Shown piece after piece: positions 3,222 to 63,335 of a stretch of DNA of 64,000 nt. The DNA comes from Acidobacteriota bacterium. Lineage in GTDB: Bacteria > Acidobacteriota > Polarisedimenticolia > SMYD01. A program made the position numbers and the translations under genes. Where the stretch lies: NCBI GenBank assembly GCA_046757405.1, contig JBHHYE010000008.1, forward strand, positions 1,944-65,943, written 5' to 3'. Within the stretch, counting starts at the first letter, position 1, and every line of letters begins with the position of its first letter. The notes under the pieces were generated by a model. It saw only the letters and a list, made by a program, of their open reading frames with translations, was not told the DNA's origin and did no database searches.

Positions 3222-3231
3222 GGGAGGGTGC

Positions 3232-4868: not shown

Positions 4869-5849
<981 letters not shown>

Positions 5850-5862
5850 CGGGAGGTTCCCT

Positions 5863-9029: not shown

Positions 9030-9062
9030 TCATTCTCCAGATATCTGAATAGGTAGGTCGAG

Positions 9063-10214: not shown

Positions 10215-10232
10215 GGGAGCACGGAGTCCCGA

Positions 10233-13468: not shown

Positions 13469-13471
13469 GTC

Positions 13472-41959: not shown

Positions 41960-42460
<501 letters not shown>

Positions 42461-42495
42461 ACATCGACCCGGCGATCCATGCGGATGGGCTCGGC

Positions 42496-47447: not shown

Positions 47448-47555
47448 GACCGTCTCTGTCTCTTCATGGGACAGAGGGGCACCTGCACTGTCCTCTTCCG
47501 GGTCAGGGGAATCGACGCCCGCTCCGCCGCACGGGATACTGAGGAACGGACTCGC

Positions 47556-47571
47556 CTGGCATCCGGTTTGC
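47556..47571 (+). promoter_or_regulatory. Sigma54 (-24/-12) promoter candidate upstream of minor-pilin operon
   Basis: cTGGCATccggtTTGCt matches the TGGCAC-N5-TTGCW consensus with GG and GC correctly spaced. Confidence 0.5.
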
Positions 47572-47587
47572 TCACCCTCCGGCCGGC

Positions 47588-48109
47588 ATGCAAAGGATCT
47601 CGAAACCGCGGACGGGCCGCTGGAGTCCCCCCGGGAGGGTCTTCTCCGGCCGGTTCCCGGCAAGACGCCGCCTGGGCGGGCCCCGCGGTCCTGGCCGGGT
47701 GGCGCCCACGGGGCAGAGGGGCTTCACGCTTCTGGAGACCTTGGTGGCCATGGTTGTTCTCAGCCTGGCCCTCATGTCGGCAGCTCGGCTCACGGTCGAG
47801 GCCGCACAGATCGTGGAGCGTGCGGTTCGGGGCACCGAGGCGCTGGCCCTTGCGTCCTCGGTGAGCGAGGTGCTGCAGGCGGCCCCGGCAGACGCTCCCT
47901 GGGTCGCTCCGGGAGGGGCGCTCGACCGGCCGGTCTCCTCCTCGGATGGCAAGTGGTTCCTGGATGCCGGCCGGTTTCAGGTCCGCTGGCGCGTCGAGAG
48001 CGCCGGGCCCTCCCTGCGACGCATTCATCTCGCCGTGGTGGACCGGTCCGCCAGCCGGGCCGCCGCGTCCATGGTCATCGAGAGTGTGCTTCTCAGGTCT
48101 TCCCGGTGA
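47588..48109 (+). CDS. Prepilin-type N-terminal cleavage/methylation domain protein (minor pilin/pseudopilin 1)
   Basis: GQRG|FTLLETLVAMVVLSLAL carries the class III signal motif with E at +5. ATG 47588 gives an unusually long 45-aa leader; the in-frame GTG 47699 (VAPTGQRG|F...) would give a typical 8-aa leader. Confidence 0.65.
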   Translation: MQRISKPRTGRWSPPGRVFSGRFPARRRLGGPRGPGRVAPTGQRGFTLLETLVAMVVLSLALMSAARLTVEAAQIVERAVRGTEALALASSVSEVLQAAPADAPWVAPGGALDRPVSSSDGKWFLDAGRFQVRWRVESAGPSLRRIHLAVVDRSASRAAASMVIESVLLRSSR

Positions 48110-48960
48110 AGCCGGACAGAACGAGACAGGCCCAGTCCGGCTCGGTGCTCCTGGAGTCCCTGGTCTCCCTCGCCCTGGGGCTGATCGTGATCGCCGTGGC
48201 CTTGCCTTTGCTCCTCTGGTCGCGCTGTGCGGCAGCCGACACGGCGGATCGCGCCGCGCGGGCCGATGGCGCGCGGCTGTCCGTGCTGCGATTGATCCGC
48301 GAATCGCGACGGGCCGGGTTCGGACTGGCGGGCGAGATGGAGGCCTTCAGGGTCGCGGAGACCGGTGACCGGGTCTCCTTGGTTTTTCTCGAAGGGGGTT
48401 TCCGTGGCGGCCTTCCCGTGTTGGAGCCCGCCCCCTCCGGGGCCCGCTCGATCGTCCTGGGCGCCCTGGGGACGCTCCGCGCCGGGGACGAGGTGGCCCT
48501 GCGGGATCGGGAGGGGCGCTTCGCCTCCGGGAGGATCGAGAGATTGACCCGGGATCCGCTCACGGTGGTTCTGGCGGCGGGTCTTCCTTTTCCGGTGTCG
48601 CCCGAGAGTGGCGCGCGCCTTTATCGCGTGTGCCGGAGGGAATGGCTTCTGGCAGGCGGCGTCTTGCGAAGGGATGGACAGCCCATCCTGGATCCTCCCG
48701 TCGGTTTCTCCCTCACCGCCGGGGCCGGCGCCCCGGACGAGGCCTTATCCTGGGTGGTCGCCAGGGGGCTTGCCGGTTCGCCGGGAAGTGTGGCCGGGCC
48801 GCTCCTGATGGCACAGCTGACGGTGGGGAGCGGCCGCCCAGGCCAAGCGGCTCCAGGATCTCCGTGCGCCGGCCATGCGCTCCGGGAAGTCCGCCTTCCG
48901 GTGGTGGTCCAGCCCCAGCATGGCTGGCCGGAGAATCTCGCTGCGAGTCCGTTGCCATGA
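48106..48960 (+). CDS. Prepilin-type minor pilin 2 (PilW-like)
   Basis: GTG start overlaps the upstream stop (GTGA). QSG|SVLLESLVSLALGLIVIAVAL has E at +5. Confidence 0.6.
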   Translation: MKPDRTRQAQSGSVLLESLVSLALGLIVIAVALPLLLWSRCAAADTADRAARADGARLSVLRLIRESRRAGFGLAGEMEAFRVAETGDRVSLVFLEGGFRGGLPVLEPAPSGARSIVLGALGTLRAGDEVALRDREGRFASGRIERLTRDPLTVVLAAGLPFPVSPESGARLYRVCRREWLLAGGVLRRDGQPILDPPVGFSLTAGAGAPDEALSWVVARGLAGSPGSVAGPLLMAQLTVGSGRPGQAAPGSPCAGHALREVRLPVVVQPQHGWPENLAASPLP

Positions 48961-50369
48961 AACCGCCGGGTGCCGCGGGTGGAGCGCTTCCGGCGGCCCT
49001 GGTCCTGCTCCTGGTCTTGACCCTGGTGGCGACGCATCTGTCGTTGATGGCGCTGACCGCCCGGCTCGGCGTTGCCCGCGCCGCGGCCGGGGACCAGAGC
49101 TACCGGATCGCGGAGGGGCTGATCCTCCTGGCGGCCACCAAGAACGCGGGGGCGCTGGCCGCTTCCCTTGCGGATGGCACGCCTCTTGGCCTGGACATGG
49201 GGGTTCTGGGTCAACCGAGGTCCGCCGGGTCGGTCCGGGTCATGGATGACCTGGATGGTGACGGGGATCCGGCCGTGGACGCCAACGGAAGACTCTTCCT
49301 GACAGCGGAAGGCCGGTTTCCAGTGGGCGGGGTGATCCGCGCCAGCCGCCGGGTTCTGAGCCAGGAGGCCCTGGTGGGCGGGTTGACTCCCTTGCCGGCC
49401 GCCATCGTGGACTGCCAGGGCCTCGCGGCGATGTGCGGGGGGACGGCCGGGTGCCCGGTCCCGGCTTCCCGCGTGGACGGCGGCTCACGGCCCGCCCTGG
49501 CGGCGACCGCCACCGGGCAAGACCGCCTCCGGCAGCGCCTGTTCCTCCTCTATCGGGAGATCCTCCGCGCCGCCGATCTCAGGTGCGGCACCGGGTCGTC
49601 AGCCTGCACCCCAGACGATGAGGACCTGAGGCGGGCCGCCAGCACCGACGTGCTCCGGGCGATGGAGGATCCGTCCGCAGATGCGCTGGGCCTTGACTCC
49701 CTGGAAATGAGCCGGCTCATTTCCAACCTCTTGATGCTGTCCGGGGATGAATCGGGAGCCGGCACCGCCGTCTGGTTCGACGGATCGGCGCGGCCGGTCA
49801 CCGATCGAGCTTTGCTGGTGGCTGCCACGGAGAATCTCGGCCGGCCGGCGGGGCATGTCCCCGATCTGGCCGGGCATCCCGTGACCCTCCTTCTGGAGGC
49901 GGGCAAACCGCTGGGTTCCGATGGCGGGCTCTGCCGCCGTCTCGCGGCCCTGTTGCCGGCCGCCATGGTCCGCGCCATGGAGATCCCGGCCGCGGCCATC
50001 GGCCCGGCTCCGGGGCCGCCTCCCGCGAGAGGCACCTTCGTTCTGAGCCGCGACCTCCGCCTGGAGCCGGGCCAGGCCCTGGCTGGAGAAGGGCTCCTGG
50101 TGGTGGAGGCCACCCTGCGGATCGATACGGGCGCGGAAATCCACTGGTCGGGCGCTCTCGTGCTCGCCGGCGGGCGCATCCAGGGCCCCGGAATCGTGCA
50201 GGTGGAAGGCGGTGTCCTGGACAGCGGCCGGCGGGCGGATGGCTCCCCGGGGCTCGACCTGTCGGCAAGCCAGTGGCAGGTGCAGGCCGACCCGGCGCGA
50301 AACGCGGCCGCCTGGGCTCCGGCCGGAACGGTTCTCCTGTCGTCGTGGGAGGAGGTGCCGGGAGAATGA
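48957..50369 (+). CDS. PilX-like minor pilin with large C-terminal domain
   Basis: ATG overlaps the upstream stop (ATGA). N-terminal hydrophobic helix MKPPGAAGGALPAALVLLLVLTLVATHLSLMAL; a ~420-aa soluble domain follows. Confidence 0.55.
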   Translation: MKPPGAAGGALPAALVLLLVLTLVATHLSLMALTARLGVARAAAGDQSYRIAEGLILLAATKNAGALAASLADGTPLGLDMGVLGQPRSAGSVRVMDDLDGDGDPAVDANGRLFLTAEGRFPVGGVIRASRRVLSQEALVGGLTPLPAAIVDCQGLAAMCGGTAGCPVPASRVDGGSRPALAATATGQDRLRQRLFLLYREILRAADLRCGTGSSACTPDDEDLRRAASTDVLRAMEDPSADALGLDSLEMSRLISNLLMLSGDESGAGTAVWFDGSARPVTDRALLVAATENLGRPAGHVPDLAGHPVTLLLEAGKPLGSDGGLCRRLAALLPAAMVRAMEIPAAAIGPAPGPPPARGTFVLSRDLRLEPGQALAGEGLLVVEATLRIDTGAEIHWSGALVLAGGRIQGPGIVQVEGGVLDSGRRADGSPGLDLSASQWQVQADPARNAAAWAPAGTVLLSSWEEVPGE

Positions 50370-50538
50370 GGGGGTCCAGTTCCCGCGCCGGCAGTCGGCG
50401 GAGCGGGCGTTCAGAAACTTGATTCCCTGGATCGCGAAACCCATATTGATCCCGGTCTCCGGCCGGGCAAAAACCCGCGGGTTGACCGGAAACCGGCGCC
50501 ACGGACTCGCCTGTCGGGCCGTCAGAAGGGGAAACTCC

Positions 50539-52254
50539 ATGGCTATAAAGCTGGGCTGGATGCTAGTGAATGCCAATATCATCACCGATGCCCAGCTGCA
50601 GGAGACCCTGGAATACCAGAAGAAGAACGGCGGAAAGCTCGGCTTCAACCTGGTCAAGCTGGGTTTTTGTACGGAAGAGGAGATCACCGAGTTCCTCTCC
50701 CAGCAGTACGGCGTTCCCAGCGTCAACCTGCGCCACTTCGAGACCGATGAGGAAGTTTACAAGCTGATCCCGGCGGAAGTGGCGCAGAAATATCTCATCA
50801 TGCCCCTGTCCCGGACGGGGGCCACCCTCACCATCGCCATGGTGGATCCCACCAATGTCTTCGCCATGGATGACATCAAGTTCATGACCGGTTACAACGT
50901 GGAACCGGTGGTTGCCTCCGAGATGGCGATCAAGGAAGCCATCGAGAAGTACTACGGATCCAGCCATTCTCTCGAGCTCAAGAAGGTCATGGATGAAATG
51001 GCCGCCAGCACCACCGAGGAGCTCGAGGTTCTGGACGAGGACGAGGAGCTCGATCTCAGAAGCCTCGAACAGGCTTCCGAAGAAGCCCCCGTCGTCAAGC
51101 TGGTGAATATCATCCTGACCGATTCCATCAAACGCGGCGCCTCGGACATCCACATCGAGCCGTACGAGAAGGATTTCCGCGTCCGGTTTCGTATTGACGG
51201 CGTCTTGTACGAGATCATGCACCCACCGCTGAAACTACGGGATGCCATTCTTTCGCGGCTCAAGATCATGTCCAAGCTCGACATCTCTGAGAAGCGATTG
51301 CCGCAGGATGGGCGCATCAAGATCAAGATGAAGGTGGCGGGACGGAACAAGGAGATGGACTTCCGTGTCTCGGTGCTGCCGACTCTTTATGGTGAAAAGA
51401 TCGTCCTGCGTCTCCTCGACAAGGATAACCTGGTCCTGGACATGCGCCGCCTGGGCTTCGACGACGAATCCCTGGAAAAGTTCGAGCGCGCCATCTTTCG
51501 TCCGTATGGAATGGTCCTGGTCACGGGGCCGACGGGATCGGGGAAAACGAACACGCTGTACTCGGCCATTCATACGGTGAACACTCCCGAGACCAACATC
51601 ATGACGGCCGAGGATCCGGTGGAGTTCAACCTGCACGGGGTCAACCAGGTGCAGGTCAGAGAGGCCATCGGGCTGACCTTCGCGGCCTCTCTGCGGTCTT
51701 TCTTGCGCCAGGACCCCAACATCGTTCTGGTCGGAGAGATCCGCGACTTCGAGACCGCGGAAATCGCGGTGAAGGCGGCCTTGACCGGGCACCTGGTTCT
51801 CTCCACCTTGCACACCAATGATGCTCCCTCCACCATCAACCGCCTGATGAACATGGGGATCGAGCCGTTCATGGTTTCCACCTCGGTCCATCTGATCTGC
51901 GCACAGAGGCTCGTGCGGCGGATCTGCAAGGAGTGCAAGGAGCCGTTCCGCCTGGCCCCGCAGGCGTTGATCGATATCGGCCTGGACGAGACAGAGGCGG
52001 CGAAGCTCAAGCTCTTCAAAGGGGCAGGCTGTCAGACATGCAACAACACGGGATACAAGGGCCGTGTTGGACTGTATGAAGTCATGGAAATCGGCGAGGG
52101 TCTCAGGGAGATGATTCTTTGCGGCGCGTCGTCGGTCGAGCTCAAGAAAAAGGCCATCGAGGACGGGATGATGACCTTGCGTGCCAGCGGACTTCAAAAG
52201 ATCAAGATGGGAATCACGACGGTGGAAGAGGTCATTCGGGAGACCGTCCAGTAA
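50539..52254 (+). CDS. pilB: Type IV pilus assembly ATPase PilB (GspE family)
   Basis: N-terminal GSPII domain, Walker A VTGPTGSGKTNTLYSAI, Asp/His boxes, and the tetracysteine CKECKE...CQTCNNTGYKGR. Confidence 0.9.
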   Translation: MAIKLGWMLVNANIITDAQLQETLEYQKKNGGKLGFNLVKLGFCTEEEITEFLSQQYGVPSVNLRHFETDEEVYKLIPAEVAQKYLIMPLSRTGATLTIAMVDPTNVFAMDDIKFMTGYNVEPVVASEMAIKEAIEKYYGSSHSLELKKVMDEMAASTTEELEVLDEDEELDLRSLEQASEEAPVVKLVNIILTDSIKRGASDIHIEPYEKDFRVRFRIDGVLYEIMHPPLKLRDAILSRLKIMSKLDISEKRLPQDGRIKIKMKVAGRNKEMDFRVSVLPTLYGEKIVLRLLDKDNLVLDMRRLGFDDESLEKFERAIFRPYGMVLVTGPTGSGKTNTLYSAIHTVNTPETNIMTAEDPVEFNLHGVNQVQVREAIGLTFAASLRSFLRQDPNIVLVGEIRDFETAEIAVKAALTGHLVLSTLHTNDAPSTINRLMNMGIEPFMVSTSVHLICAQRLVRRICKECKEPFRLAPQALIDIGLDETEAAKLKLFKGAGCQTCNNTGYKGRVGLYEVMEIGEGLREMILCGASSVELKKKAIEDGMMTLRASGLQKIKMGITTVEEVIRETVQ

Positions 52255-52280: not shown

Positions 52281-53402
52281 ATGGCAATCACATTGCACCA
52301 GCTCCTGAAGACTCTCGTGGAACAGGGTGGCACTGATTTGCATGTCACCACCAATTCCCCGCCCCAGATCCGTATCAATGGCCGTCTGGTCCCCTTGCAA
52401 CTGCCGCCCATGACGGCTTCCGAGACGAAGCAGCTCATCTATTCGGTGCTCACGGATAACCAGAAGCACCGGTTCGAGGAGAACCTGGAGCTCGACCTGT
52501 CGTTCGGGGTGAAGGGGCTCGCCCGGTTCCGTGCCAACGTTTTCCTGCAACGGGGAGCCGTGTGCGCCGCCTTCCGGACCATCCCCTGGGAAATCAAGGG
52601 GTTCAAGGAGCTCGGCCTTCCCGACATCGTCGAGAAGCTCAGCGACAGGCCGCGCGGACTGGTCCTGGTGACGGGCCCGACGGGATCGGGGAAATCCACC
52701 ACGCTGGCCGCCATGCTCGACAGGATCAACACGGAGCGCAACAGCCACATCGTCACCATCGAGGATCCAGTCGAGTTTCTTCACTCCCACAAGAAATGCA
52801 TTGTCAATCAGCGCGAGCTCAATGCCGATACGTTGTCATTCAGCAACGCCCTGCGCTCTGTTCTGCGCCAGGATCCCGATGTTGTTCTCATCGGCGAGAT
52901 GCGTGATCTTGAAACCATCGAGGCGGCGCTGAGAATTGCAGAGACCGGGCACCTGACATTCGCGACTCTGCACACCAATTCCACGGTTCAGACCATCAAC
53001 CGGATCATCGACGTCTTTCCGGCGTACCAGCAAAGCCAGGTGCGGGCCCAGCTCTCCTTTGTGCTCGAGGGGATTCTCTGCCAGACGTTGCTGCCCATGT
53101 CCACCAATGCGGGGCGGGTCATGAGCATGGAAATCATGGTTCCCAACGCCGCCATCCGGAACCTCATCCGGGAAGACAAGATCCATCAGATCTACTCCAT
53201 CATGCAGACGGGGCAGGCCAAATTCGGTATGCAAACTTTCAACCAGTCGCTGGCCTCCTTGTTCCTCAAGAAGAAGATCACTCTGGAGGTCGCGCGCAGC
53301 GCGTCGTCCAAGCCCGAAGAACTCGACGACATGATCAGCCGGGGCTCCGGGCTTATCTATGAGACCCGGCCCAATGCCGCGGCCCGCAGGGCCCGGCGGT
53401 AG
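52281..53402 (+). CDS. pilT: Twitching-motility retraction ATPase PilT
   Basis: Walker A VTGPTGSGKSTT, the PilT-specific AIRNLIRE motif, ~370 aa. It lacks the long N-terminal extension of PilB. Confidence 0.9.
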   Translation: MAITLHQLLKTLVEQGGTDLHVTTNSPPQIRINGRLVPLQLPPMTASETKQLIYSVLTDNQKHRFEENLELDLSFGVKGLARFRANVFLQRGAVCAAFRTIPWEIKGFKELGLPDIVEKLSDRPRGLVLVTGPTGSGKSTTLAAMLDRINTERNSHIVTIEDPVEFLHSHKKCIVNQRELNADTLSFSNALRSVLRQDPDVVLIGEMRDLETIEAALRIAETGHLTFATLHTNSTVQTINRIIDVFPAYQQSQVRAQLSFVLEGILCQTLLPMSTNAGRVMSMEIMVPNAAIRNLIREDKIHQIYSIMQTGQAKFGMQTFNQSLASLFLKKKITLEVARSASSKPEELDDMISRGSGLIYETRPNAAARRARR

Positions 53403-53435: not shown

Positions 53436-54638
53436 ATGCCGACCTATTCATGGAAAGGGCGCAACCCCGCAGGTGTCATGCAGGAAGGCGTCCTGTCCGC
53501 GGACAGCAAGGAAGCGCTGGTGGGCATGCTGCGCAAGCAGCAAATCCTGGTCACGGCCGTGACCGAGAAGGGGAAGGAATTCGCCCTGCCCAAGTTCGGG
53601 GGCGGAGTCAAGCAAAAAGAGATCGCCATCTTCACCCGGCAGTTCAGTGTCATGATCGATGCAGGTTTGCCACTGGTCCAGTGCTTGGAAATCCTGGCTG
53701 GACAGCAGGTCAACCGGGTCTTCAAGAAGGTTCTGGTCAATGTCCGGCAGGATGTGGAAGCCGGGGCTACCTTGGCCGATTCCCTACGGAAACATCCGAA
53801 AGTCTTCAACGCTCTGTACTCCAACATGGTGGCCGCCGGCGAGACCGGCGGTATTCTTGACACGATCCTGCAGCGCCTTTCCACCTACATTGAGAAGATT
53901 GTCAAGCTGCGCGGCGCGGTGCGCTCAGCCTCCGTCTATCCGGTCGCCGTGATTACCATCGCCGTGGGGGTGGTGACGATCATTCTGTGGAGAGTCATCC
54001 CGACTTTCGCGACTCTCTTCGAGGGGCTAGGCGCCCAGCTGCCGCTGCCGACGCGGATCACCATCGCCATTTCCGAGTTCCTGGGACGATGGATGCCGGT
54101 GCTGGTTCTCATGGTCGGCCTGCTCATTTTCGCGATCTTCCGTTACCACAAGACCCATTCGGGCAGGCGGTGGATCGACCGCTTGGTCCTCAAGATACCC
54201 GTGCTCGGCTCCCTGTTGCGAAAGATCGCCGTGGCGCGATTTTGCCGGACTCTCGGGACGTTGATCTCATCGGGTGTTCCGATCCTCGAGGGGCTGGAAG
54301 TCACGGCCAAGACGGCCGGCAACTCGATCGTCGAGGATGCCATCATGGCGACCCGGAAGAGCGTGGAGGAGGGGAAGAATCTGGCGGTGCCCCTGGGAGA
54401 CACCAAGGTCTTCCCTTCCATGGTCGTGCAGATGATCGCCGTGGGCGAACAGACGGGCGCCATGGACGCCATGCTGGCCAAGATCGCGGACTTTTACGAG
54501 GACGAAGTGGACGAGGCAGTGGCCAATCTTCTTGCCCTGATGGAACCGGTGATGATAGTCTTCCTGGGGACGATCATCGGCGGCATCGTGATTTCCATGT
54601 ATATGCCGCTGTTCTCGCTGATCAACAAGATCGGGTGA
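53436..54638 (+). CDS. pilC: Type IV pilus inner-membrane platform protein PilC (GspF family)
   Basis: Two GspF repeats (FTRQFSVMIDAGLPLVQCLEIL... and ...FCRTLGTLISSGVPILEGLEV), ~400 aa. Confidence 0.9.
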   Translation: MPTYSWKGRNPAGVMQEGVLSADSKEALVGMLRKQQILVTAVTEKGKEFALPKFGGGVKQKEIAIFTRQFSVMIDAGLPLVQCLEILAGQQVNRVFKKVLVNVRQDVEAGATLADSLRKHPKVFNALYSNMVAAGETGGILDTILQRLSTYIEKIVKLRGAVRSASVYPVAVITIAVGVVTIILWRVIPTFATLFEGLGAQLPLPTRITIAISEFLGRWMPVLVLMVGLLIFAIFRYHKTHSGRRWIDRLVLKIPVLGSLLRKIAVARFCRTLGTLISSGVPILEGLEVTAKTAGNSIVEDAIMATRKSVEEGKNLAVPLGDTKVFPSMVVQMIAVGEQTGAMDAMLAKIADFYEDEVDEAVANLLALMEPVMIVFLGTIIGGIVISMYMPLFSLINKIG

Positions 54639-54751: not shown

Positions 54752-56446
54752 ATGACAGACACCCTCTACAAAATCCGGCTCTTGATGGTGGTCCGGGTGG
54801 TGGCGGTGACGGCCCTGCTCGTGGTGGCCTTCCTGGTAGAGTTATGGTTCCAGCCGGCACGCTCGCTTCGCCCTCTTTATATTCTCACCGCGGCCACTTA
54901 CTCCCTCACCATCATCTATGGATTGCTCTATGCGACTCTCCGCGAGCAGCAGGTCTTCATCCATTTACAGCTGATCGGCGACATCCTGGCCAGTTCGGCT
55001 TTTGTCTACATAACGGGCGGGACGACCAGCCCTTTTTCATTTCTCTATGTTCCGGTCATTCTCGCCGCGGGCATGCTGCTCTACCAGCGGGGCGCGTACA
55101 CCTTCGCCTGTCTCTCCTCCCTGGCCTACGGAACCCTGGTTGTGGCCATCTTGACGGGAGTGCTCCCGGTGTATCCCCCCGGGTCGATGCAGATCTCCGC
55201 AGCGGAGTTCAAGCGCGCCAGTTTTGCACTTATGGTCCACTTCCTGGGGTTCGGACTGGTGGCCATCCTGGCCTCGGCCCTGTCGGAAAGTCTCCGTCGG
55301 ACCGGCGAGGAGCTGGGAACCACCCGCGAGAATCTGGAAGACCTGCAGGTGTTCAATGCCCTGATCATTGATTCGGTGAATTCGGGCCTGATCACCGCCG
55401 ATCCGGCCGGCCGGATTACCTTCCTGAACCGCGCCGCCCGGGAAATAACGGGGCTCATGGAATCATTCGCCCGGGAGCGATCCATTCAGGATCTTTTTGA
55501 TTTGCCGGATGATTTCATCGAACGCCTCAACCGATGCCTGGCGCGGGCCCGCCGTTTTCGATTCGAGGTGCGCTACCAGGTAGCGGCGGGCGTCAACCGG
55601 ATCCTTGGATTCACCGCGGGACTGCTTCGCGACAAGGAGCGCATGCCACTGGGCTATATCTTCACCTTCCAGGATCTCACGGAGATCAAGGCTCTGGAAA
55701 AAGAAGTGCTGGTACGTGAGAGAATGGCAGCCGTGGGAGAGATGGCGGCCGGGATGGCCCATGAGCTGCGGAATCCACTGGCATCCATGAGTGGTTCGGT
55801 ACAAGTTCTCGGAACCGGTATTCCCACGGAGCGGCGCGACCAGATGGAGCTCCTGGAAATCATCCAGAGGGAGTCCCTGCGCCTTGACCAGGTGTTGAAA
55901 GATTTTCTTTCCTTCGCCCGGCCGCGGCCTTTCAATCCAGAATTGACCGATCTGGTCGGTCTCCTGACCGATCTTGTCCGCTTGCTCAAGAATTCTCCAG
56001 GATTGCTTCCCGCCCACCAGGTCGTGACCACCTTTGCATGCCAGTCGCTTCCCTGTCACGTGGATGTCGATCGCATCAAACAGGTTTTCTGGAACCTTGC
56101 CAGTAATGCTCTGCGGGCCATGCCCGCGGGCGGACGCCTGGAGATCTCCGCCGGCCCCGCCCGGGATGGCATGGTGGCCTTCTCGTTCACGGACACGGGC
56201 CACGGGATGACCGCCGAAGAGATGAGGAATTTTTTCAGGCCGTTCCGCTCCCGGTTTGACGGGGGGACCGGGCTCGGAACCGCCATCGTCTACCGTATTG
56301 TGCAGGAGCACAACGGACGCACGACCGTTGACTCGGAACCGGGGCGCGGCACCAAGGTCGTGGTGTCGATCCCGGCGCAGCCCGTAGGGACGACCGATTA
56401 TCGTGAGGAGAATCGATGGGAGCAATTGGTCGAGCACGTGTCCTGA
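54752..56446 (+). CDS. pilS: Sensor histidine kinase PilS-like (polytopic N-terminus, PAS, HisKA, HATPase_c)
   Basis: Six N-terminal TM helices, then the H-box MAAGMAHELRNPL and N/G boxes (GGRLEISAG..., GTGLGTAIV). It is adjacent and co-oriented with pilR. Confidence 0.8.
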   Translation: MTDTLYKIRLLMVVRVVAVTALLVVAFLVELWFQPARSLRPLYILTAATYSLTIIYGLLYATLREQQVFIHLQLIGDILASSAFVYITGGTTSPFSFLYVPVILAAGMLLYQRGAYTFACLSSLAYGTLVVAILTGVLPVYPPGSMQISAAEFKRASFALMVHFLGFGLVAILASALSESLRRTGEELGTTRENLEDLQVFNALIIDSVNSGLITADPAGRITFLNRAAREITGLMESFARERSIQDLFDLPDDFIERLNRCLARARRFRFEVRYQVAAGVNRILGFTAGLLRDKERMPLGYIFTFQDLTEIKALEKEVLVRERMAAVGEMAAGMAHELRNPLASMSGSVQVLGTGIPTERRDQMELLEIIQRESLRLDQVLKDFLSFARPRPFNPELTDLVGLLTDLVRLLKNSPGLLPAHQVVTTFACQSLPCHVDVDRIKQVFWNLASNALRAMPAGGRLEISAGPARDGMVAFSFTDTGHGMTAEEMRNFFRPFRSRFDGGTGLGTAIVYRIVQEHNGRTTVDSEPGRGTKVVVSIPAQPVGTTDYREENRWEQLVEHVS

Positions 56447-57876
56447 TCGTCGACGACGAGAAGTCGATGCGGGAATTGCTGGCGATTGCCCTGGAGCCTG
56501 ACCAGCTCGAGGTGAAGGCGGTTGCCTCGGTGGCCGATGCCCGGAGGGCGATGCAGGAAAGTCCTTTTGACCTGGTGGTGTCTGACATCGCCATGCCCGG
56601 AGAAAGCGGCATGGAGCTCCTGGCCGAGCTCCGCCGGTCCAGCCCCCAGCTCCCTGTCATTCTCATCACCGCCTACGCATCCATGGAGTCGGCGAAACGC
56701 GCTTTTTCATTGGGTGTTTATGATTGCGTCGACAAGGGCGCGAGCTTCAACATCGAGGAATTCCGCGCGACGGTGCGCAACGCCATCCAGTCGCGCCAGG
56801 TGCTTCAAGAGAACCAGATCCTCAAGAAGCAGCTCAAGAACCGGCATGGACCCGGGACCCTGGTGGCCCGCTCCCGGAAAATGCAAGCCGTCTGCGATCT
56901 CATTGATCGGGTGGCGCCGACGCGCTCCACGCTGTTGATCACCGGCGAGAGCGGCACAGGCAAGGAAGTGGTGGCCCGGACCATTCATTATTCCGGCCCA
57001 GGGGCCGAGGCCCCCTTTGTCTCCATTAACTGCGGCGCCATGCCCTCGGAATTGCTGGAGAGCGAGCTGTTCGGCCACATGAAGGGTGCGTTCACCGGCG
57101 CCCTGGCGGCCAAGCAAGGATTGTTTCAAGCGGCCCGCGAGGGTACGGTCTTTCTGGATGAGATCGGAGAGATGCCGCCGTCAGCGCAGGTGAGACTCCT
57201 CCGGGTCTTGCAGGAACGGACCATCCGGATGGTGGGTGGGACCGAGGAGATCGAAGTCGAGGCGCGGGTGGTGGCGGCCACCAACGCAGACCTGGCCGCC
57301 AAGGTCGAGCAGGGTGCCTTCCGGGCGGACCTTTACTACCGGATCAATGTCATTCCCATTCATCTACCGCCTCTCCGTGAGCGCCTGGAAGACATCTCGG
57401 CTCTTGCCCAGCTCTTCGTCCGGAGATTCGCCCGCGAGCTCGGCCGTGAGGCGCCTGAGTTTTCGCCGGAGTCCCTGCGCGCGCTGGAAGAGTACGCCTG
57501 GCCCGGGAACGTGCGCGAGCTGGAGAATGCGATCCAGCGGGCCGTGACCCTGGCCGGTGAGGGGGCCATCACGCCGGATGTGCTGCCGGCGGCGATCACG
57601 GAAAAAGACGCCGTGGGCGCTCCACCAGGAGAAGGGCGCCTGGAGACCGTCTCGCCCACGCTGATCCCGGAAGGACAGAACCTGGACCAGTACCTGGGAA
57701 CCATCAAGGCCTCGCTCATGGAGCGGGCCCTGGAGGAGTCCAACCATGTCCAGGTGGAGGCGGCGCGGCGCCTGGGCATGTCGTTCCGGTCGTTCCGGTA
57801 CTTCGCCAAGCAGCTGGGAGTTCACGTTCATCCGGAGAGCCGTGAGCGAGAGGGCGGACGAGGGTCCAAAGGGTGA
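56416..57876 (+). CDS. pilR: Sigma54-dependent response regulator PilR (NtrC family)
   Basis: REC domain (VLIVDDE...D at the phospho-site), AAA+ sigma54-activator core (GESGTGKE, GAFRADLYYRINVIPIHLPPLRER), and a C-terminal Fis-type HTH. Confidence 0.9.
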   Translation: MGAIGRARVLIVDDEKSMRELLAIALEPDQLEVKAVASVADARRAMQESPFDLVVSDIAMPGESGMELLAELRRSSPQLPVILITAYASMESAKRAFSLGVYDCVDKGASFNIEEFRATVRNAIQSRQVLQENQILKKQLKNRHGPGTLVARSRKMQAVCDLIDRVAPTRSTLLITGESGTGKEVVARTIHYSGPGAEAPFVSINCGAMPSELLESELFGHMKGAFTGALAAKQGLFQAAREGTVFLDEIGEMPPSAQVRLLRVLQERTIRMVGGTEEIEVEARVVAATNADLAAKVEQGAFRADLYYRINVIPIHLPPLRERLEDISALAQLFVRRFARELGREAPEFSPESLRALEEYAWPGNVRELENAIQRAVTLAGEGAITPDVLPAAITEKDAVGAPPGEGRLETVSPTLIPEGQNLDQYLGTIKASLMERALEESNHVQVEAARRLGMSFRSFRYFAKQLGVHVHPESREREGGRGSKG

Positions 57877-60347
57877 CGGTCACTTCCGGCAGGGGCCGGT
57901 TCATGGCCCCGCCGATCCTGGGCGTTACCCTGGCGGCCTTCGCCGGAGCCCTGAGCGGCGGCACCCTCTATTTTCGAGACCTGATTCTTCTTCACCGTCC
58001 TGTCCGCGTGGCCATCCGCCGCCTGTGGAGAGCGGGAATCGTGCCTCTCTGGGATCCCTGGCAGGATGGTGGGCGCGTTCTCCTCGCCAACCCGAACCAC
58101 CAGGTTCTCCATCCGACGGCTCTCCTGGACCTCTTCTTCTCGGTGGACACCGCCCTTGCCGCCGCCATGGTCGTGCAGGTTTTCCTGGCCGGCTGGGGAC
58201 TGGCCCTGTTCCTCAAGGACCGGGGCGCGACCCCCGCCGCGGCCCGGATGGGAGGGATGACCTACGCGCTTTCCGGCCCCGTGCTGTCGCTGGGCAATCT
58301 TCCCAACCTGATGGGGTCGATTGCCTGGGTGCCCCTGGTGCTCTGGGCCGGCTGCCGGGCGTTCCGATCGCCGGGGCTCTGGGTCCCGCTCGCCGCGTTC
58401 CTGGCCGCGATTCCGGCCTTGAGCGGCGGCGTCGAATCTCTCGGAGTGGCCGCGCTGATCCTCGGGGCTTTGGCCCTCTGGCACCCGGACCGGTTGCGGC
58501 GGCTCGGTATCACCGCGAGCATCACCGTGGGGGGACTCATGCTGGCGGCGGTGCAGCTTCTTCCCGCCTGGGAGACCTTGCGCGACTCCGAGCGCGGGCT
58601 GGGATTCCAGCCGGACCAGATCTTTTACTGGTCCTTTTCTCCCATTCGTTTCCTGGAAGCCGCCATCCCCCGGCTCTGGGGCCTGCCCACCGACCGGGCC
58701 GCCTGGTGGGGCGAGGCGGTGTTCGACGGGGGATGGCCTCTCATCCTCTCGACGTACCTGGGGGCCGGTGTGCTGGTCCTGGCCGGGGTTGGCGGCAGCG
58801 TGGCCATCGGACGTTTCGTCGGGCGCGCCGGACGCTTCCGGCGAATGGCCGCGGCGCGGTTGCCGGACGAGATGTGGCAGTCCACGCTGGTCGCAGGATG
58901 GACCGGGACCGGTCTCATGCTGCTGGCTCTGGGACGTCACAATCCGCTCCTGACGCTCTGGGGCGGCCTGCCCAGGGCAGGGGGGGCCATTCTTCGTTAT
59001 CCGGAGCGACTGGTCCCGCTGGCTGTGCTGGCCGTTGCGGTGGCTGCCGCAGCCGGCTGGCAGGTGCTGGCGGCGGCGAGACAGGAAAAGGAGGCTCTGC
59101 CACGGAGCTGGTGGATGGCGGCCGCCACCATGGTCCTCCTGCTCGGTCTGGCCGGAGCCATGGCGCGGTGGGCCGGCCTCCATCCCGTCGGACTGTACCA
59201 GCCGGCGCTTTCGGCGCGGGCTGCGGCTGCCCTGGTCCTCCCCGTGGTCAAGGCCGTGGCAGGGCTCTGGGTGGTGGCCGTGTGTGTCTGGATGGCCGGC
59301 CGGCCGCGGCGCGAATCTCTTGCCGCGGGCCTTCTGTTCCTTGCCCTGTCGGCGGATCTCCTGGCTGCGAACGGAGCACTGAATCCCACCATGGATCCAG
59401 GGCTGATGGCGTCCGAGCCCGCGGCGGCCAGGTTCCTTGCCTCGCTGGAGAGCAGCGATCGTCCGGAGGAGAGGCCCTGTGTCGTGCGTGGTGTCGAGCC
59501 CCGTGGGCCGTGGGCCGCGGCTCCGTCCGGCGAGGCGGCCGTCTGGTCCCGCCACAGCCTGGCTCTCAGGATCCCGGAGGAGTTCGGGTTGGCGACCTCC
59601 TTGACCCGGGACGTGGACCGCTCCACCCCCCTGGGCAACGCGTATCTGCGTGTCGCCCACCGGCAAGCCACGGGTGCATCCCGGGAGCGGCTGGCGGATC
59701 GTGCCGGAGCCTCCTGGGAGCTGGGATTCGATCCCGGGCCGTCCCCGATTCCCGCGGGCGCTCCCTTCCACCAGAAGGTCCTGCCCGGGGCTCCGGCCGT
59801 GGTCCTCTGGCCGCGGCCCGACGCGGCGCCGCGGATCAGCATCGTGCCCCGCGGGATCGCCCTGGGAAGGCTTGCCGCGCCGGGAGGGCTTCAACGGCTC
59901 CTGGCCCGGCTCGGCGACCCCGGCTCCGACCCGCGGCGCGAGGTTTTTCTCTCAGGGCGCCAGTCCCGCCCCGTGGAGGGACACTGGGAGCCCGCGGCGG
60001 GACGCGCCGACCTGGTCGTGGAGACGCCGCTCCACCTCGAGATCGCCACGCAGGCGCCCGGCCCCGGGGTTCTGGTGGTCCGCGATTCACTGGCGCGCGG
60101 CTGGCAGGCGCGTCTGGACGGGCGCCGGGTCGAGGTTGTGCGCGCTGACCTGGCCTGGCGGGGAGTCGTCCTGCCGGCCGGCCTCCACCGGGTAAGCTTC
60201 GTGTACCGCCAGCCGGGCCTGGTTGCCGGGACCGCGTGCAGCGCGATGGCCCTGGCGGTTCTCCTGGGCGTGGCCGGCCGATCGGTACGCCGTCACGGGC
60301 GGTGGCAGGCAGCCCGCCAGGCCGAGAACGGCCGGAGGGCCGCTTGA
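57873..60347 (+). CDS. YfhO-family-like polytopic membrane protein (GT-C-fold glycosyltransferase candidate)
   Basis: About 13 N-terminal TM helices and a ~300-aa extracytoplasmic C-terminal domain. It ends GWQARLDGRRVEVVRADLAWRGVVLPAGLHRVSFVYRQPG plus a terminal TM helix, closely resembling the conserved YfhO C-terminus (..W.A.VDGK.V...AN.AFRGV.LPAG.H.V.F.Y.P). Confidence 0.6.
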   Translation: MTVTSGRGRFMAPPILGVTLAAFAGALSGGTLYFRDLILLHRPVRVAIRRLWRAGIVPLWDPWQDGGRVLLANPNHQVLHPTALLDLFFSVDTALAAAMVVQVFLAGWGLALFLKDRGATPAAARMGGMTYALSGPVLSLGNLPNLMGSIAWVPLVLWAGCRAFRSPGLWVPLAAFLAAIPALSGGVESLGVAALILGALALWHPDRLRRLGITASITVGGLMLAAVQLLPAWETLRDSERGLGFQPDQIFYWSFSPIRFLEAAIPRLWGLPTDRAAWWGEAVFDGGWPLILSTYLGAGVLVLAGVGGSVAIGRFVGRAGRFRRMAAARLPDEMWQSTLVAGWTGTGLMLLALGRHNPLLTLWGGLPRAGGAILRYPERLVPLAVLAVAVAAAAGWQVLAAARQEKEALPRSWWMAAATMVLLLGLAGAMARWAGLHPVGLYQPALSARAAAALVLPVVKAVAGLWVVAVCVWMAGRPRRESLAAGLLFLALSADLLAANGALNPTMDPGLMASEPAAARFLASLESSDRPEERPCVVRGVEPRGPWAAAPSGEAAVWSRHSLALRIPEEFGLATSLTRDVDRSTPLGNAYLRVAHRQATGASRERLADRAGASWELGFDPGPSPIPAGAPFHQKVLPGAPAVVLWPRPDAAPRISIVPRGIALGRLAAPGGLQRLLARLGDPGSDPRREVFLSGRQSRPVEGHWEPAAGRADLVVETPLHLEIATQAPGPGVLVVRDSLARGWQARLDGRRVEVVRADLAWRGVVLPAGLHRVSFVYRQPGLVAGTACSAMALAVLLGVAGRSVRRHGRWQAARQAENGRRAA

Positions 60348-62098
60348 GAAGGTGGGCCACGATTCTGGTTCTTGCCGCGTTAGGATGCGCCGCTCTCTCT
60401 GCGGGAAGCGGCGCCATACGCTCGTTTGACTTCGGCTGGCACCTGCGCGCCGGAGAGTCGATTCTCGAGCATCATGGGCGGCCTCCTCGGGCCGACCCCA
60501 TTGCTTATACCAGCGGATCCGCCGAGTGGATCGACCACGAGTGGCTTTTCCAGCTGATCCTGGCTCTCCTGGTCCAGGCGGGAGGTCTGAAGGGGGCGTG
60601 GCTGCTGAAACAGACTCTCATCCTGGTCGGGGTGCTGGTTCCGGCCGCCTGGCTGTTGCGGATGAATCACTCTCCCTTGGCGGTGGCCTCCTTGGGGGTT
60701 CTGGCTCTGGCGGGCGGCCGGTTCCGTTTTTCTGCGCGGCCGGAGATGGTCGCCGTCGCCTTCTTGCCCGCTCTCCTGATCGTCCTGGTGGTCGCCCACC
60801 GACGCGCACGGCGGGGAGCGCGGATGGTCCCACTCCTGGCGCTGGTCCCGATCCTGGTGCTGGGCTGGGTGAACCTGCATCTTTCCGCCTTGCTGGCAGC
60901 TCTCCTGGTTGTCGTCTTCGCCCTGGCCGTGCTCATCGAGCAACGGGGAACCGATCGGATCAGCCGGCCGTTCCTGGTGACGGCTGTTCTGGCGGGGGCC
61001 GCTCTCCTGGCCAACCCGTACGGGACCCGTCTCCTGGCGGTTCCTTTTTCCATTCATACAGCCCTCACCAGCGGGGGATTGACCAACCCCGAGTGGGGAA
61101 GTGCACTGCACAGCCGTTTCGGGCTTTTCTGGACGGTCTTGCTCGCCGCCGGCACCGGCCTCCTCCTGGCCCGCCGGGCAGGCAGGAGAATGGTCCTGCC
61201 GGTGGCGGCCTGTGCGGCGGTTCTGGCTGTCGCCGGGGGTGCTGCCGCTCGCACCCTGAGTTGCTTCTACATGGCCTTGCCGGTCTGCGCCCTCGCCGTC
61301 ACCACCGGCAAGCAGTCCGGTGCGGCACAGGAAGTGCGGGCGGGATGGCGTGGCCGGGTTTCGGCCGGGGCGGCCGTCGGTCTTCCGCTCCTGGCAGCGG
61401 GTCTCTTCATGCTCTTTCCCGGGGGAGCTCCAGGGGGAGTCGGACTGGCCCCGGGACGCTTTCCCGAGGCGATGGCGTCCACCTACCAGGAGATGGGACT
61501 GCGCGGCCCGATCTACAATCCGGTCCGTTTCGGTGGATATCTTTCCTGGGCCCTGGCGCCCCAGAAGGTGTTCATCGATGGACGCAACGAGGTCCACGGA
61601 GAGCTCCTCTCCCGCCTGGCGGCCTGCCGGATGGCGACCCGACTGGAGTGCTGGGATCGGCTCGTGGAGCGATGGGATACTCAGGCGGCGTTCGTGGAAT
61701 ATGATCCACGCCGCATTCCGGTCCGCCTGCCTGATGGACGCTTCATCTCACGCAGCGTGTCATCGGTCTACTTCAGGCGGGATTCCTGGGCGCTGGTGGA
61801 CTGGGATGACGTCGCCATGCTTCTGGTCCGGCGAGGCGGCCGGAACGCCGAGCGGATCGACGGCCAGGAGGACCGGGTACTGATGCCCGAGGATCCAGAA
61901 TATTTTTACCGGGAGCTCAGAGCGGGGCGGATCGACTGGCGGGAAGCCCAGCGAGAGGTGAGCCGGCGGCTGGCCCGGCATCCAGATTCCCGGAAGGCCC
62001 GCCTGCTCCAGGAGATCGTGCGCCGGCTGGAGGTTGAGGTGAATGAGGGGAAAAATCGTCCACCGGTGGTCCGGGTGACGGGCAGTGGCGGGGACTGA
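60344..62098 (+). CDS. Polytopic membrane protein with acidic first-loop motif (GT-C-like glycosyltransferase candidate) and ~190-aa C-terminal soluble domain
   Basis: TTG 60344 overlaps the upstream stop. TM1 is followed by a periplasmic-loop motif SAEWIDHEWLFQ (GT-C-like DxD/ExD position), then 10 or more TM helices and an Arg/Glu-rich soluble C-terminus. Confidence 0.55.
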   Translation: MRRWATILVLAALGCAALSAGSGAIRSFDFGWHLRAGESILEHHGRPPRADPIAYTSGSAEWIDHEWLFQLILALLVQAGGLKGAWLLKQTLILVGVLVPAAWLLRMNHSPLAVASLGVLALAGGRFRFSARPEMVAVAFLPALLIVLVVAHRRARRGARMVPLLALVPILVLGWVNLHLSALLAALLVVVFALAVLIEQRGTDRISRPFLVTAVLAGAALLANPYGTRLLAVPFSIHTALTSGGLTNPEWGSALHSRFGLFWTVLLAAGTGLLLARRAGRRMVLPVAACAAVLAVAGGAAARTLSCFYMALPVCALAVTTGKQSGAAQEVRAGWRGRVSAGAAVGLPLLAAGLFMLFPGGAPGGVGLAPGRFPEAMASTYQEMGLRGPIYNPVRFGGYLSWALAPQKVFIDGRNEVHGELLSRLAACRMATRLECWDRLVERWDTQAAFVEYDPRRIPVRLPDGRFISRSVSSVYFRRDSWALVDWDDVAMLLVRRGGRNAERIDGQEDRVLMPEDPEYFYRELRAGRIDWREAQREVSRRLARHPDSRKARLLQEIVRRLEVEVNEGKNRPPVVRVTGSGGD

Positions 62099-62259
62099 CA
62101 TCGAGTGTCCACAAAGCTGACAATATCTGGCAGGTCCGGGAGCCCTCGGGAGTCTCGCCTGGGAATGGGCCCAGGCAGACAAGCACTCGTAAAATGTAAG
62201 TTACTGAATACAATGTACTTATAATTCTAACCTGCTCTCCCCGGCCCGCTCGGGTCGGC

Positions 62260-62275
62260 TGGCATTCCCTTTGCG
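62260..62275 (+). promoter_or_regulatory. Sigma54 (-24/-12) promoter candidate for pilA
   Basis: cTGGCATtccctTTGCg matches TGGCAC-N5-TTGCW, ~37 nt upstream of the pilA start, with an AAGGAGG RBS at 62297-62303. An AT-rich stretch at 62190-62235 is a possible UAS/IHF region. Confidence 0.55.
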
Positions 62276-62311
62276 ACAGGGTCAAGCCAAACTCTAAAGG
62301 AGGTGACTGTG

Positions 62312-62785
62312 GTGAACAGAAAGCAAGAAGGATTCACACTGATCGAGCTGCTGATTGTCGTGGCGATTATCGGTATCATCGCCGCCATCGCCATCCCGAA
62401 CCTGCTCAATGCCATCGATCGCGGCAAGCAGAAGCGGAGCATGGCTGATCTTCGGTCCGTCGGAACAGCCGTGGAAGAGTATGCCATTGACAACTCTTTC
62501 TATCCCAACGTGGCTGCCGAGGCCAACATCGCCGGTTCCGCCGTGGAGACCTCGATCGAGCCGGTCTATATCCGCAATGCTCCGACCGAGGATGGGTGGG
62601 GCTTCAACATGCGGTATATCAGCGACACGACCGTCTACACGGTTGGTTCCCTGGCCAAGGATGGTGCGGCGGGCGGCAATCTCACCATCAACAGCACCAA
62701 CGGTCGGACCACCGACTTTGACTGCGACATCATTTTCTCCAACGGCTCCTTTGTCCAGTGGCCGGAAGGAACGCAGGCTGACTGA
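62312..62785 (+). CDS. pilA: Type IV major pilin PilA (T4a, GspG-like fold)
   Basis: A short leader precedes G|FTLIELLIVVAIIGIIAAIAIPN (E+5). GTG starts are possible at 62303, 62309 or 62312, downstream of a strong RBS. C-terminal disulfide-pair Cys (DFDCD). Confidence 0.85.
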   Translation: MNRKQEGFTLIELLIVVAIIGIIAAIAIPNLLNAIDRGKQKRSMADLRSVGTAVEEYAIDNSFYPNVAAEANIAGSAVETSIEPVYIRNAPTEDGWGFNMRYISDTTVYTVGSLAKDGAAGGNLTINSTNGRTTDFDCDIIFSNGSFVQWPEGTQAD

Positions 62786-62806: not shown

Positions 62807-62850
62807 AGCGGCGGTGGCCTCGAGGGAGTCCACCGCCGCTTTCCCTTTCT
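62807..62850 (+). terminator. Intrinsic terminator-like hairpin after pilA
   Basis: 11-bp GC-rich stem AGCGGCGGTGG/CCACCGCCGCT with a 12-nt loop, followed by TTCCCTTTCT. Confidence 0.5.
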
Positions 62851-62879: not shown

Positions 62880-63335
62880 ATGTTCGAGACCCGGGGGAAC
62901 AATCATCGTGCGGAGGGGTTCACCCTCATCGAGCTTCTGGTCGCGGTCACCATCATCGGGATCGTTGCCACCATCGCGGTGCCGGCGCTGAACACGGCCA
63001 TGGAGAAATCCCGCCAGCGCGCGACCGTCGCCAACATGCGCGCCGTGGGGAACGCGCTCCAGATCTACCAGAACGATCTGACGTCGTTCCCCCCGGGCAC
63101 GCTGGATATCAACCAGCTGGCGGTCGCCCTCCTGGGAGTCACCAAACGGCCGATCCCGGTACACGATTCATGGGGCCGGGATTTCGACTATCGTTCGGAC
63201 GGGCTGGTGGAGTATTCAGTGGAGAGCTTTGGCCGCGACGGGGTGCCTGGAGCCGACATTTCTCCCGCGCAAGCCAATAACTTTGACCTGGATATCGTCC
63301 TGAGCGACGGTATCTTCGTCGCCTCGGTCAACTGA
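62880..63335 (+). CDS. Second type IV pilin (PilA paralogue, GspG-like)
   Basis: MFETRGNNHRAEG|FTLIELLVAVTIIGIVATIAVP (E+5). It is paralogous to pilA (SMADLRSVGTAVEEY vs TVANMRAVGNALQIY). Start at ATG 62880. Confidence 0.8.
   Translation: MFETRGNNHRAEGFTLIELLVAVTIIGIVATIAVPALNTAMEKSRQRATVANMRAVGNALQIYQNDLTSFPPGTLDINQLAVALLGVTKRPIPVHDSWGRDFDYRSDGLVEYSVESFGRDGVPGADISPAQANNFDLDIVLSDGIFVASVN

Follow-up and report, generated by a model that had tools for sequence, protein, structure and literature searches.

Control of the major type IV pilin by sigma-54 and the activator PilR is established in Pseudomonas, Myxococcus, Geobacter, Kingella, Xanthomonas and other bacteria (PMC6058289, PMC6211767, PMC2725144, PMC7170775). 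In Geobacter sulfurreducens, as summarised in PMC2725144 with reference to Juarez et al. 2009, the genes follow the order pilB-T-C-S-R-pilA, the pilA promoter depends on PilR and RpoN by experiment, and the pilA start was mapped by rapid amplification of cDNA 5′ ends (5′-RACE). In silico work, in the summary given in PMC6058289, also predicted PilR sites with sigma-54 promoters at other Geobacter pilus genes; Leang et al. 2009 (PMC2725144) and Krushkal et al. 2010 are further sources on the Geobacter system. Our literature search found no paper on pilus regulation in Acidobacteriota. Here, we examine a 64-kb stretch of DNA (the window) from an uncultured Acidobacteriota bacterium with a genome of about 65% G+C. 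It carries a type IV pilus locus with two -24/-12 motifs, one upstream of the major-pilin gene pilA and the other upstream of a cassette of three putative minor-pilin genes, mp1, mp2 and mp3. We conclude, with a probability of roughly 0.72, that both motifs are functional sigma-54 promoters of this locus and that they are wired differently; sigma-54 dependence, transcription start sites, the pairing of proteins with their boxes and DNA looping are inferred from sequence throughout.

The locus shares with Geobacter its gene order, the placement of the activator gene just upstream of its target and a -24/-12 promoter at pilA. It differs in belonging to another phylum and in carrying two large membrane-protein genes between pilR and pilA; the start site was mapped there and is predicted here, and the box TGACA-N5-TGTCA described below was derived from Acidobacteriota only. 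Resemblance to Pseudomonas aeruginosa lies in the six-helix PilS membrane domain (6TM_PilS), the NtrC-type PilR and an enhancer upstream of a sigma-54 pilA promoter. For that species, Ishimoto and Lory reportedly described PilS-PilR-RpoN control of pilA in 1989 and 1992, and the TGTC core of the Pseudomonas PilR site, attributed to Jin et al. 1994, is said to be the one shared with the box found here. The Pseudomonas sites are given as GTCT elements and as NifA-like TGT-N11-AGA (PMC6058289); they are tandem repeats, whereas those of the window are palindromes. Control of the Pseudomonas minor-pilin operon fimU-pilVWXY1E lies with FimS-AlgR and Vfr, and pilR influences this operon only indirectly (PMC6058289, PMC5979040). 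The RpoN2-PilRX system of Xanthomonas oryzae resembles the present locus in having GG-N10-GC motifs upstream of several pilus units, minor-pilin units included, but in gel shifts RpoN2 bound only the pilR, pilA and pilC promoters (PMC7170775). Unlike those motifs, the minor-pilin motif described here is near full consensus and conserved across lineages, and pilB has a sigma-70-like promoter. In the pilSR-pilA locus of Myxococcus xanthus, pilA is likewise dependent on sigma-54 and PilR (PMC6211767).

The sequence TGGCAT-N5-TTGC (TGGCATNNNNNTTGC) matches the window exactly at 47557–47571 and 62260–62274, both on the forward strand, and nowhere else on either strand; the original prediction had located both motifs, with one end of each displaced by a single base (47556 and 62275). 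Dinucleotide-preserving shuffles yield an expected count of 0.07 per window, and no shuffle reached two. Both copies have the GG-to-GC spacing of 10 nucleotides (nt) found in the sigma-54 consensus TGGCAC-N5-TTGCW, and both are intergenic and on the same strand as the prepilin gene downstream. The 47557 motif occupies the gap between aroK (stop at 47447) and mp1, the 62260 motif that between a 620-amino-acid (aa) open reading frame (ORF; stop at 62098) and pilA, and pilB-pilT-pilC-pilS-pilR lie between the two. A scan with a sigma-54 matrix gives the 47557 motif 16.6 bits, the highest score in the window, and the 62260 motif 14.4 bits, the third highest.

Several observations weigh against reading promoters from these motifs on their own. 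The matrix is an approximation of the published consensus, which makes its bit scores only relative; a looser consensus (TGGCACGNNNNTTGCW, at most 3 mismatches) gives 71 matches against 85 expected, with no enrichment; and rpoN is not encoded within the 64-kb window. Chance alone would give about 1.6 matrix matches per window at 13 bits or more. What carries the case is thus where the motifs lie and that they are conserved, not motif score alone. The second-ranked match, at 52281–52297 (ATGGCAATCACATTGCA, 14.7 bits), was rejected: it comprises the pilT start codon and the codons M-A-I-T-L-H, a transcript from it would start inside pilT, and it is a look-alike because the coding sequence itself generates it. 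A weaker counterpart is found at the pilT start of one of the relatives' loci (L022).

The regulators encoded between the two motifs are as originally predicted. The Pfam domains of pilS (54752–56446) are 6TM_PilS, PAS, HisKA and HATPase_c, and those of pilR (56416–57876) are the receiver, Sigma54_activat and HTH_8. PilR retains the receiver Asp, Walker A, ESELFGH and GAFTGA (at residue 224) as well as HTH_8, and is therefore a complete sigma-54 activator of the NtrC type. No enhancer-binding protein besides PilR was found in the window or in the 15–18 kb orthologous loci described below.

To place the pilA motif in context, we compared it with 80 loci around PilC homologues, taken with 10-kb flanks (L001–L080; 1.38 Mb in total). 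The closest PilC proteins are 61–78% identical and come from Acidobacteriota, mostly Thermoanaerobaculia and Terriglobia. All of these loci show the order pilB-pilT-pilC-pilS, in most cases with pilR next, and major-pilin genes (G/F[TS]LIELLIVVAII, where the slash marks the cleavage site) follow pilR in 25 of the 80 loci. A sigma-54 match of at least 12.5 bits lies 40–200 nt 5′ of the cleavage-site codon in 26 of 53 pilin genes, distributed over 21 of these 25 loci, at distances of 62–176 nt (median 83.5 nt). The background is 0.0048 per such stretch (binomial P ~1e-46 for 26/53). The pilA element of the window (TGGCATTCCCTTTGC; 62260–62274, forward strand) matches TGGCAT-N5-TTGC exactly and has equivalents in these relatives. 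Its -12 C stands 35 nt before the GTG at 62309, with a strong Shine-Dalgarno sequence (AAGGAGG, 62297–62303) in between, and transcription is predicted to start at about 62286. The pilA gene (62309–62785, forward strand) matches Pfam N_methyl and T2SSG and, in NCBIfam, GspG-like and Myxococcus PilA N-terminus models; it begins at GTG 62309 (or 62312) with the leader M(V)NRKQEG/FTLIELLIVVAIIG.

When the relatives' upstream regions are aligned on the promoter, the palindrome TGACA-N5-TGTCA recurs. The 7.3 kb upstream of the relatives' pilA promoters contain 9 copies of GACA-N5-TGTC versus 22 in the entire 1.38 Mb, an enrichment of ~77-fold that is confined to the 5-nt spacing, and allowing one mismatch gives 23 sites, 65–163 nt upstream of these promoters. 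A box matrix was then built from 19 of the relatives' sites, with none from the window. Across the 64 kb, its first- and third-ranked hits fall at 62116 (15.2) and 62094 (10.3), where they form two tandem palindromic boxes, a candidate PilR enhancer at 62094–62134 to which no strand is assigned. Box 1 (ACTGACATCGAGTGTCCAC; 62094–62112) starts 166 nt upstream of the -24 element and overlaps the stop of the upstream ORF; box 2 (GCTGACAATATCTGGCAGG; 62116–62134) starts 144 nt upstream. The boxes are spaced 22 bp apart, that is, two helical turns, and the CTGACA direct repeat also emerged from a repeat search. PilR repeats had been expected within the AT-rich segment at 62190–62235; the candidates lie instead upstream of it, and the AT-rich part (62185–62235; 29% G+C; direct repeat TAAAATGTA / TACAATGTA) forms the spacer between boxes and promoter. 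This spacer is possibly a bend or an IHF/HU site, and a search of it for the IHF consensus returned only matches with 2 mismatches.

These features are consistent with an ordinary PilS-PilR-sigma-54 pilin promoter, for which we infer PilR binding, looping and the start site. The conserved tandem palindromic site thereby supports the earlier proposal that PilR drives pilA. Phosphorylated PilR would bind the two TGACA-N5-TGTCA-type boxes at 62094–62134, and the AT-rich spacer would permit the DNA to loop between these boxes and the promoter. The AAA+ domain of PilR, through its GAFTGA loop, would then remodel the sigma-54 holoenzyme on 62260–62274. Transcription from ~62286 would yield a short, monocistronic message for pilA that has a strong Shine-Dalgarno sequence and ends at a terminator of its own. 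A terminator-like hairpin indeed follows pilA at 62807–62840 (forward strand), with an 11-bp G+C-rich stem and then a U-rich tail; the 78 nt at 62783–62860 fold at -43 kcal/mol (z = -4.0), and 0 of 200 shuffles is as stable.

Beyond this terminator lies a second, GspG-like pilin gene (62880–63335, forward strand), which has no sigma-54-like element of its own, as is the case for most second pilins in relatives. Terriglobia-type loci (L046–L050, L059, L069, L073, L077) carry two to five tandem pilin paralogues downstream of pilR, several of them with their own sigma-54-like element, for instance three in L048. Many Thermoanaerobaculia loci (L008–L021, L023, L026) have a different regulatory layout: pilB-T-C-S is present, tblastn finds no PilR homologue after pilS, and there is no pilin gene within the flank.

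The minor-pilin motif required a different set of relatives. Compared with most Acidobacteriota, the window carries an SNF-SNF-aroK-mp1-mp2-mp3 block (43950–50369) inserted between accC and pilB; in L002 (4898–7078), for example, accB-accC directly precede pilB, and pilO/P/Q-like genes also lie upstream of pilB. Searches of the 80 PilC-anchored loci by tblastn with mp1-3, aroK and SNF returned nothing because the cassette is absent there. The block is limited to a small clade consisting of the window, L083–L089 and two JGI contigs of sample 3300042731. Protein searches found just 3 homologues of mp3 among 5.8 billion clusters, with mp3 itself identical to a hypothetical protein of an NCBI Acidobacteriota assembly, and mp1 matches only itself; the JGI contig with an mp3 homologue has the order SNF-aroK-116aa-287aa-471aa-pilB-pilT. 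A search with aroK returned six close relatives clearly set apart from the rest, and their contigs served as the test set. L083, L084 and L085 share the order accB-accC-SNF-SNF-aroK-136aa-286aa-457aa-pilB-pilT-pilC-pilS-pilR and an identical spacer. The contigs of L088 and L089 extend as far as the first pilin gene, that of L087 breaks off within the motif and that of L086 just before it, and L081 and L082 are too short to cover the promoter.

Among these relatives aroK is 51–58% identical to the window's gene (52–58% in the three lineages with the complete motif) and mp1 41–45%, and the aroK-mp1 spacers (111–251 nt) are essentially unalignable apart from the motif. In each spacer the best forward-strand matrix match is the aligned GGCA(C/T)-N5-TTGCT: CTGGCATCCGGTTTGCT in the window (16.6 bits), CTGGCACACCGGTTGCT in L083 (15.6 bits), ATGGCATCCGGGTTGCT in L088 (13.2 bits) and CCGGCACGGGTGTTGCT in L089 (12.7 bits), with an unscored element in L087 (GTGGCATCCCCATTG, cut at GGCATCCCCATTG by the contig end). 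MAFFT, run on six spacers, brought the motif into register in just three of them (window, L083 and L088); those of L089 and L087 were anchored by pattern. Given a background of 3e-5 per nt (L001–L080), the joint chance for three independent lineages other than the window is ~1e-7. The distance from the -12 C to the start codon of the mp1 orthologue is 16, 47 or 49 nt. Retention of the motif in diverged spacers at such a joint chance argues for a functional sigma-54 promoter at 47557–47571 (TGGCATCCGGTTTGC; forward strand), the exact match with the top matrix score, with a predicted transcription start at about 47583. Under phylogenetic footprinting, then, both motifs behave as the real sigma-54 promoters that had been proposed.

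The alternative here is that the 47557 motif is a chance look-alike or a silent sigma-54 site, with the mp genes read through from aroK or from an unrecognised sigma-70 promoter. Matches of at least 13 bits do arise by chance at the rate given above, the high-scoring match at 52281 is clearly a product of coding sequence, aroK has the same orientation as the mp operon, and no canonical terminator separates aroK from mp1. The motif is nevertheless the only conserved island in a diverged spacer in at least four lineages, on the correct strand and 16–49 nt before a start codon, and we regard the look-alike explanation as very improbable.

What activates this second promoter is a separate matter. 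The original prediction had PilR driving both pilin promoters and suggested a search for PilR-type repeats upstream of 47556. The pilA half of the proposal stands as described above; the minor-pilin half does not fare as well. The best pilA-type box in the window's minor-pilin spacer scores 4.3, compared with 15.2 and 10.3 at pilA, and none of the orthologous aroK-mp1 spacers contains a match of at least 7 bits. The minor-pilin spacer also contains neither an AT-rich segment (68% G+C up to the promoter) nor matches to the IHF consensus. It carries instead an inverted repeat, GGACAG-N13-CTGTCC (47469–47493, unstranded), whose centre lies 77 nt upstream of the -24 GG and which is a candidate enhancer. 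A second repeat, CTCTGTC-N9-GACAGAG (47454–47476, unstranded), overlaps it just after the aroK stop. ACAG-N12/13-CTGT has a single copy in the window and a frequency of 0.015 per kb in L001–L080, and it recurs at the same place in L083 (GGAACAG-N12-CTGTCC), L086 (GGAACAG-N12-CTGTTCC) and L087 (ACAG-N12-CTGT). From its centre to the GG the distance is 77 nt in the window, 77.5 nt in L083 and 87.5 nt in L087, a spacing that is either constant or longer by one helical turn, as would fit a protein bound to one side of the DNA. We dropped a reading of the repeat as a -35/-10 promoter of the extracytoplasmic-function (ECF) type, for which its spacing is ~20 nt versus 16–17.

The absence of a pilA-type box and the presence of a different conserved repeat leave the notion that PilR drives both promoters unsupported for the second one. 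The minor-pilin cassette (47699–50369) would use its own sigma-54 promoter at 47557–47571, with GGACAG-N13-CTGTCC, centred ~77 nt upstream of the GG, as the most likely enhancer. We consider it slightly more likely that the activator is another enhancer-binding protein, or PilR acting in a non-canonical way, than that PilR acts there as it does at pilA. That the activator is a protein other than PilR has close to an even chance. The full combination, in which sigma-54 control of the cassette runs through its own enhancer GGnACAG-N12/13-CTGTnCC and an activator other than PilR, is a tentative proposal. A precedent for two activators in one pilus locus is NmpR of Myxococcus, a second enhancer-binding protein acting at another sigma-54 promoter inside the pilus cluster (PMC6211767); it differs in that the promoter it acts on lies within pilS and serves pilR, not a minor-pilin operon.

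Two findings tell against separate wiring. The ACAG-N12/13-CTGT repeat is absent from L088 and L089, which keep the promoter, and TGTC/GACA tetramers are enriched in five minor-pilin spacers (10 versus 2.9 expected, P ~9e-4), so that PilR remains a candidate activator of the second promoter. A single regulator, with PilS signalling co-inducing major and minor pilins through PilR at both promoters, accordingly deserves a hearing, and we think it possible, if doubtful. PilR is the only enhancer-binding protein encoded nearby, activator genes usually adjoin their targets (PMC2725144), the tetramers are its half-sites, and the window's repeat can be written GACA-N15-TGTC, that is, the pilA-box tetramers set one helical turn further apart. 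Yet the box matrix finds nothing above the scores just given, the conserved core of the repeat is ACAG/CTGT rather than GAC/GTC (relatives have AACA...TGTT), and the spacer is G+C-rich with no AT-rich bend. The precedents point the same way: the effect of PilR on Pseudomonas minor pilins is indirect (PMC6058289), and in Xanthomonas oryzae most GGN10GC pilus motifs, apart from those at pilR, pilA and pilC, were not bound by RpoN2 (PMC7170775). The repeat might alternatively act as RNA, as a hairpin at the aroK 3′ end or a stability element, with the true enhancer elsewhere, perhaps inside aroK. It starts 22 nt past the aroK stop, a single position of its arms differs on both sides between lineages (GGGACAG/CTGTCC in the window, GGAACAG/CTGTTCC in L086), and the two lineages that keep the promoter without the repeat would fit such a role. 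But no U-tract follows it, the stem has just 6–7 bp around a loop of 12–13 nt, and the helical phasing of 77, 77.5 and 87.5 nt is expected of a protein site and not of a 3′-end hairpin; we find this explanation unlikely.

The position of the minor-pilin promoter bears on where mp1 starts, as had been pointed out. The -12 C (47571) lies 17 nt before ATG 47588, close to the ~18 nt first estimated, and 128 nt before GTG 47699. The ATG would fall at about +6 of the predicted start site, has no Shine-Dalgarno sequence and implies a 45-aa leader. The GTG gives a 5′ untranslated region (UTR) of 116 nt and a classical 8-aa leader, MAPTGQRG/F (MAPTGQRG/FTLLE). Leaders of mp1 orthologues measure 9, 17 and 20 aa, and the proteins 116–142 aa; the short form in the window would have 136 aa and the long form 173 aa. 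The 37-codon extension is rich in Arg, Gly and Pro (23/37 residues), with G+C of 0.65/0.78/0.81 at the three codon positions. Its G+C at the third minus the second position (GC3 minus GC2) is 0.03, compared with 0.25 +/- 0.10 for the three minor-pilin genes and -0.16 +/- 0.13 for wrong frames. Two points run counter to the GTG: it has no Shine-Dalgarno sequence before it, versus GAAGGAGGG in L083, and in L089 the sole in-frame start, an ATG, follows the -12 C by 16 nt, in the geometry seen for ATG 47588. With that geometry (16–17 nt past the -12 C) the sigma-54 transcript would be almost leaderless and the window's prepilin would carry a leader of 45 aa, a reading we entertain as possible. Nor does the putative 116-nt 5′ UTR speak for the GTG: it folds no better than shuffles (z = +0.94). 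On balance GTG 47699 is moderately favoured as the probable start of mp1. Rfam, which found only a tRNA, recognised no known riboswitch or leader RNA in either 5′ region. The public gene call P0005 (47750–48109, 119 aa) begins mp1 at the internal Met55; with such a start the prepilin leader is lost along with some of the hydrophobic helix, and the call is therefore likely to be wrong.

The label of minor-pilin operon is reasonable in view of signal peptides and position. The product of mp1 (47699 or 47588 to 48109, forward strand) is prepilin-like and resembles PilV/GspI. Its N-methylation motif (N_methyl) scores above the cut-off of TIGR02532, and the PilV model TIGR02523 gives 32 bits, below the cut-off of 52.2. 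A class III prepilin signal is present in mp1 (QRG/FTLLE) and, from the translation, in mp2 (48106–48960, forward strand; ...AQSG/SVLLESLV, with the core QSG/SVLLE), and mp1 orthologues keep G/xxLxE. The product of mp3 (48957–50369, forward strand; translation, GG/ALPAAL) has a hydrophobic N-terminal helix and no Glu5, and in this it resembles GspK/PilX-type proteins, which likewise have no Glu5. Neither mp2 nor mp3 matches a Pfam or NCBIfam family, and their family assignment stays provisional. Modelling of mp3 with AlphaFold, based on an alignment of 4 sequences, gave a poor structure (predicted local distance difference test, pLDDT, 56.7), and a Foldseek search of the PDB with this poor model gave no match with E <1.

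Within the cassette, the start codons of mp2 and mp3 each overlap the stop of the gene before. No terminator-like site is present in the 170 nt that separate mp3 from pilB, and this gap holds a sigma-70-like promoter (TTGATT, 17 nt, CATATT; 50419–50447, forward strand) that is conserved in relatives: TTGACC-N17-CATATT is found in L083 (about 13430–13470), L081 and L082, and the flanks are not conserved. Such conservation suggests that pilB-pilT-pilC and the later genes have a promoter of their own, in which case the sigma-54 promoter need serve only the three minor-pilin genes; read-through from it into pilB is possible. In relatives that have no cassette (L001, L002, L006), the pilB promoter reads TTGACA-N17-TAxxTT. 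The -35 element and spacer there form a palindrome like the PilR box, perfect in L006 (TGACAGAATGTGTCA, about 7030–7060) and TGACAATAATTTTCA in L001 and L002, possibly a PilR operator overlapping the sigma-70 promoter.

The gene map was drawn from Pfam and NCBIfam scans and from translations read by eye, and all of the following genes are on the forward strand. Upstream of the cassette, these scans identify accB-accC (41960–43893), two SNF-type transporters (43950–46939) and aroK (46923–47447), and downstream of it pilB (about 50540–52254), pilT (ending at 53402) and pilC (53436–54638). Between pilR and pilA (57873–62098) lie the two large polytopic membrane-protein genes, a YfhO-like one (57873–60347) and the ORF for the 620-aa protein of unknown function (60236–62098). 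The YfhO-like protein has weak matches to the PgfM1/PgfM2 glycosyltransferases, and YfhO-like genes also stand beside pilus genes in L030, L031, L033 and L054. The 620-aa protein has a homologue in L006, likewise between pilR and pilA. Both may be pilin glycosylation enzymes. Elsewhere, 1926–12341 holds a polysaccharide biosynthesis and export cluster (Wzx-like flippase, epimerase, GT4-family transferase, Poly_export/SLBB and a Wzz/GNVR tyrosine-kinase-type protein), and the single tRNA gene lies at 30019–30090.

The conserved near-consensus sigma-54 promoter before a minor-pilin cassette is mildly unusual, within a known kind, and the result neither opens nor closes a major question. The best-studied systems either place minor pilins under sigma-70-type control or have sigma-54 motifs there that did not pass binding tests. 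In practical terms, the analysis offers corrected gene starts for public annotations and motifs for predicting regulons in metagenome-assembled genomes, and the candidate PilR box TGACA-N5-TGTCA can now be tested. The same PilR/sigma-54 design for the major pilin is seen across Acidobacteriota, a largely uncultured phylum that abounds in soil and sediment. If the minor-pilin promoter does answer to a separate activator, the cell could adjust how many pilus initiation complexes it forms and how much major pilin it supplies through two separate sigma-54 signalling inputs.

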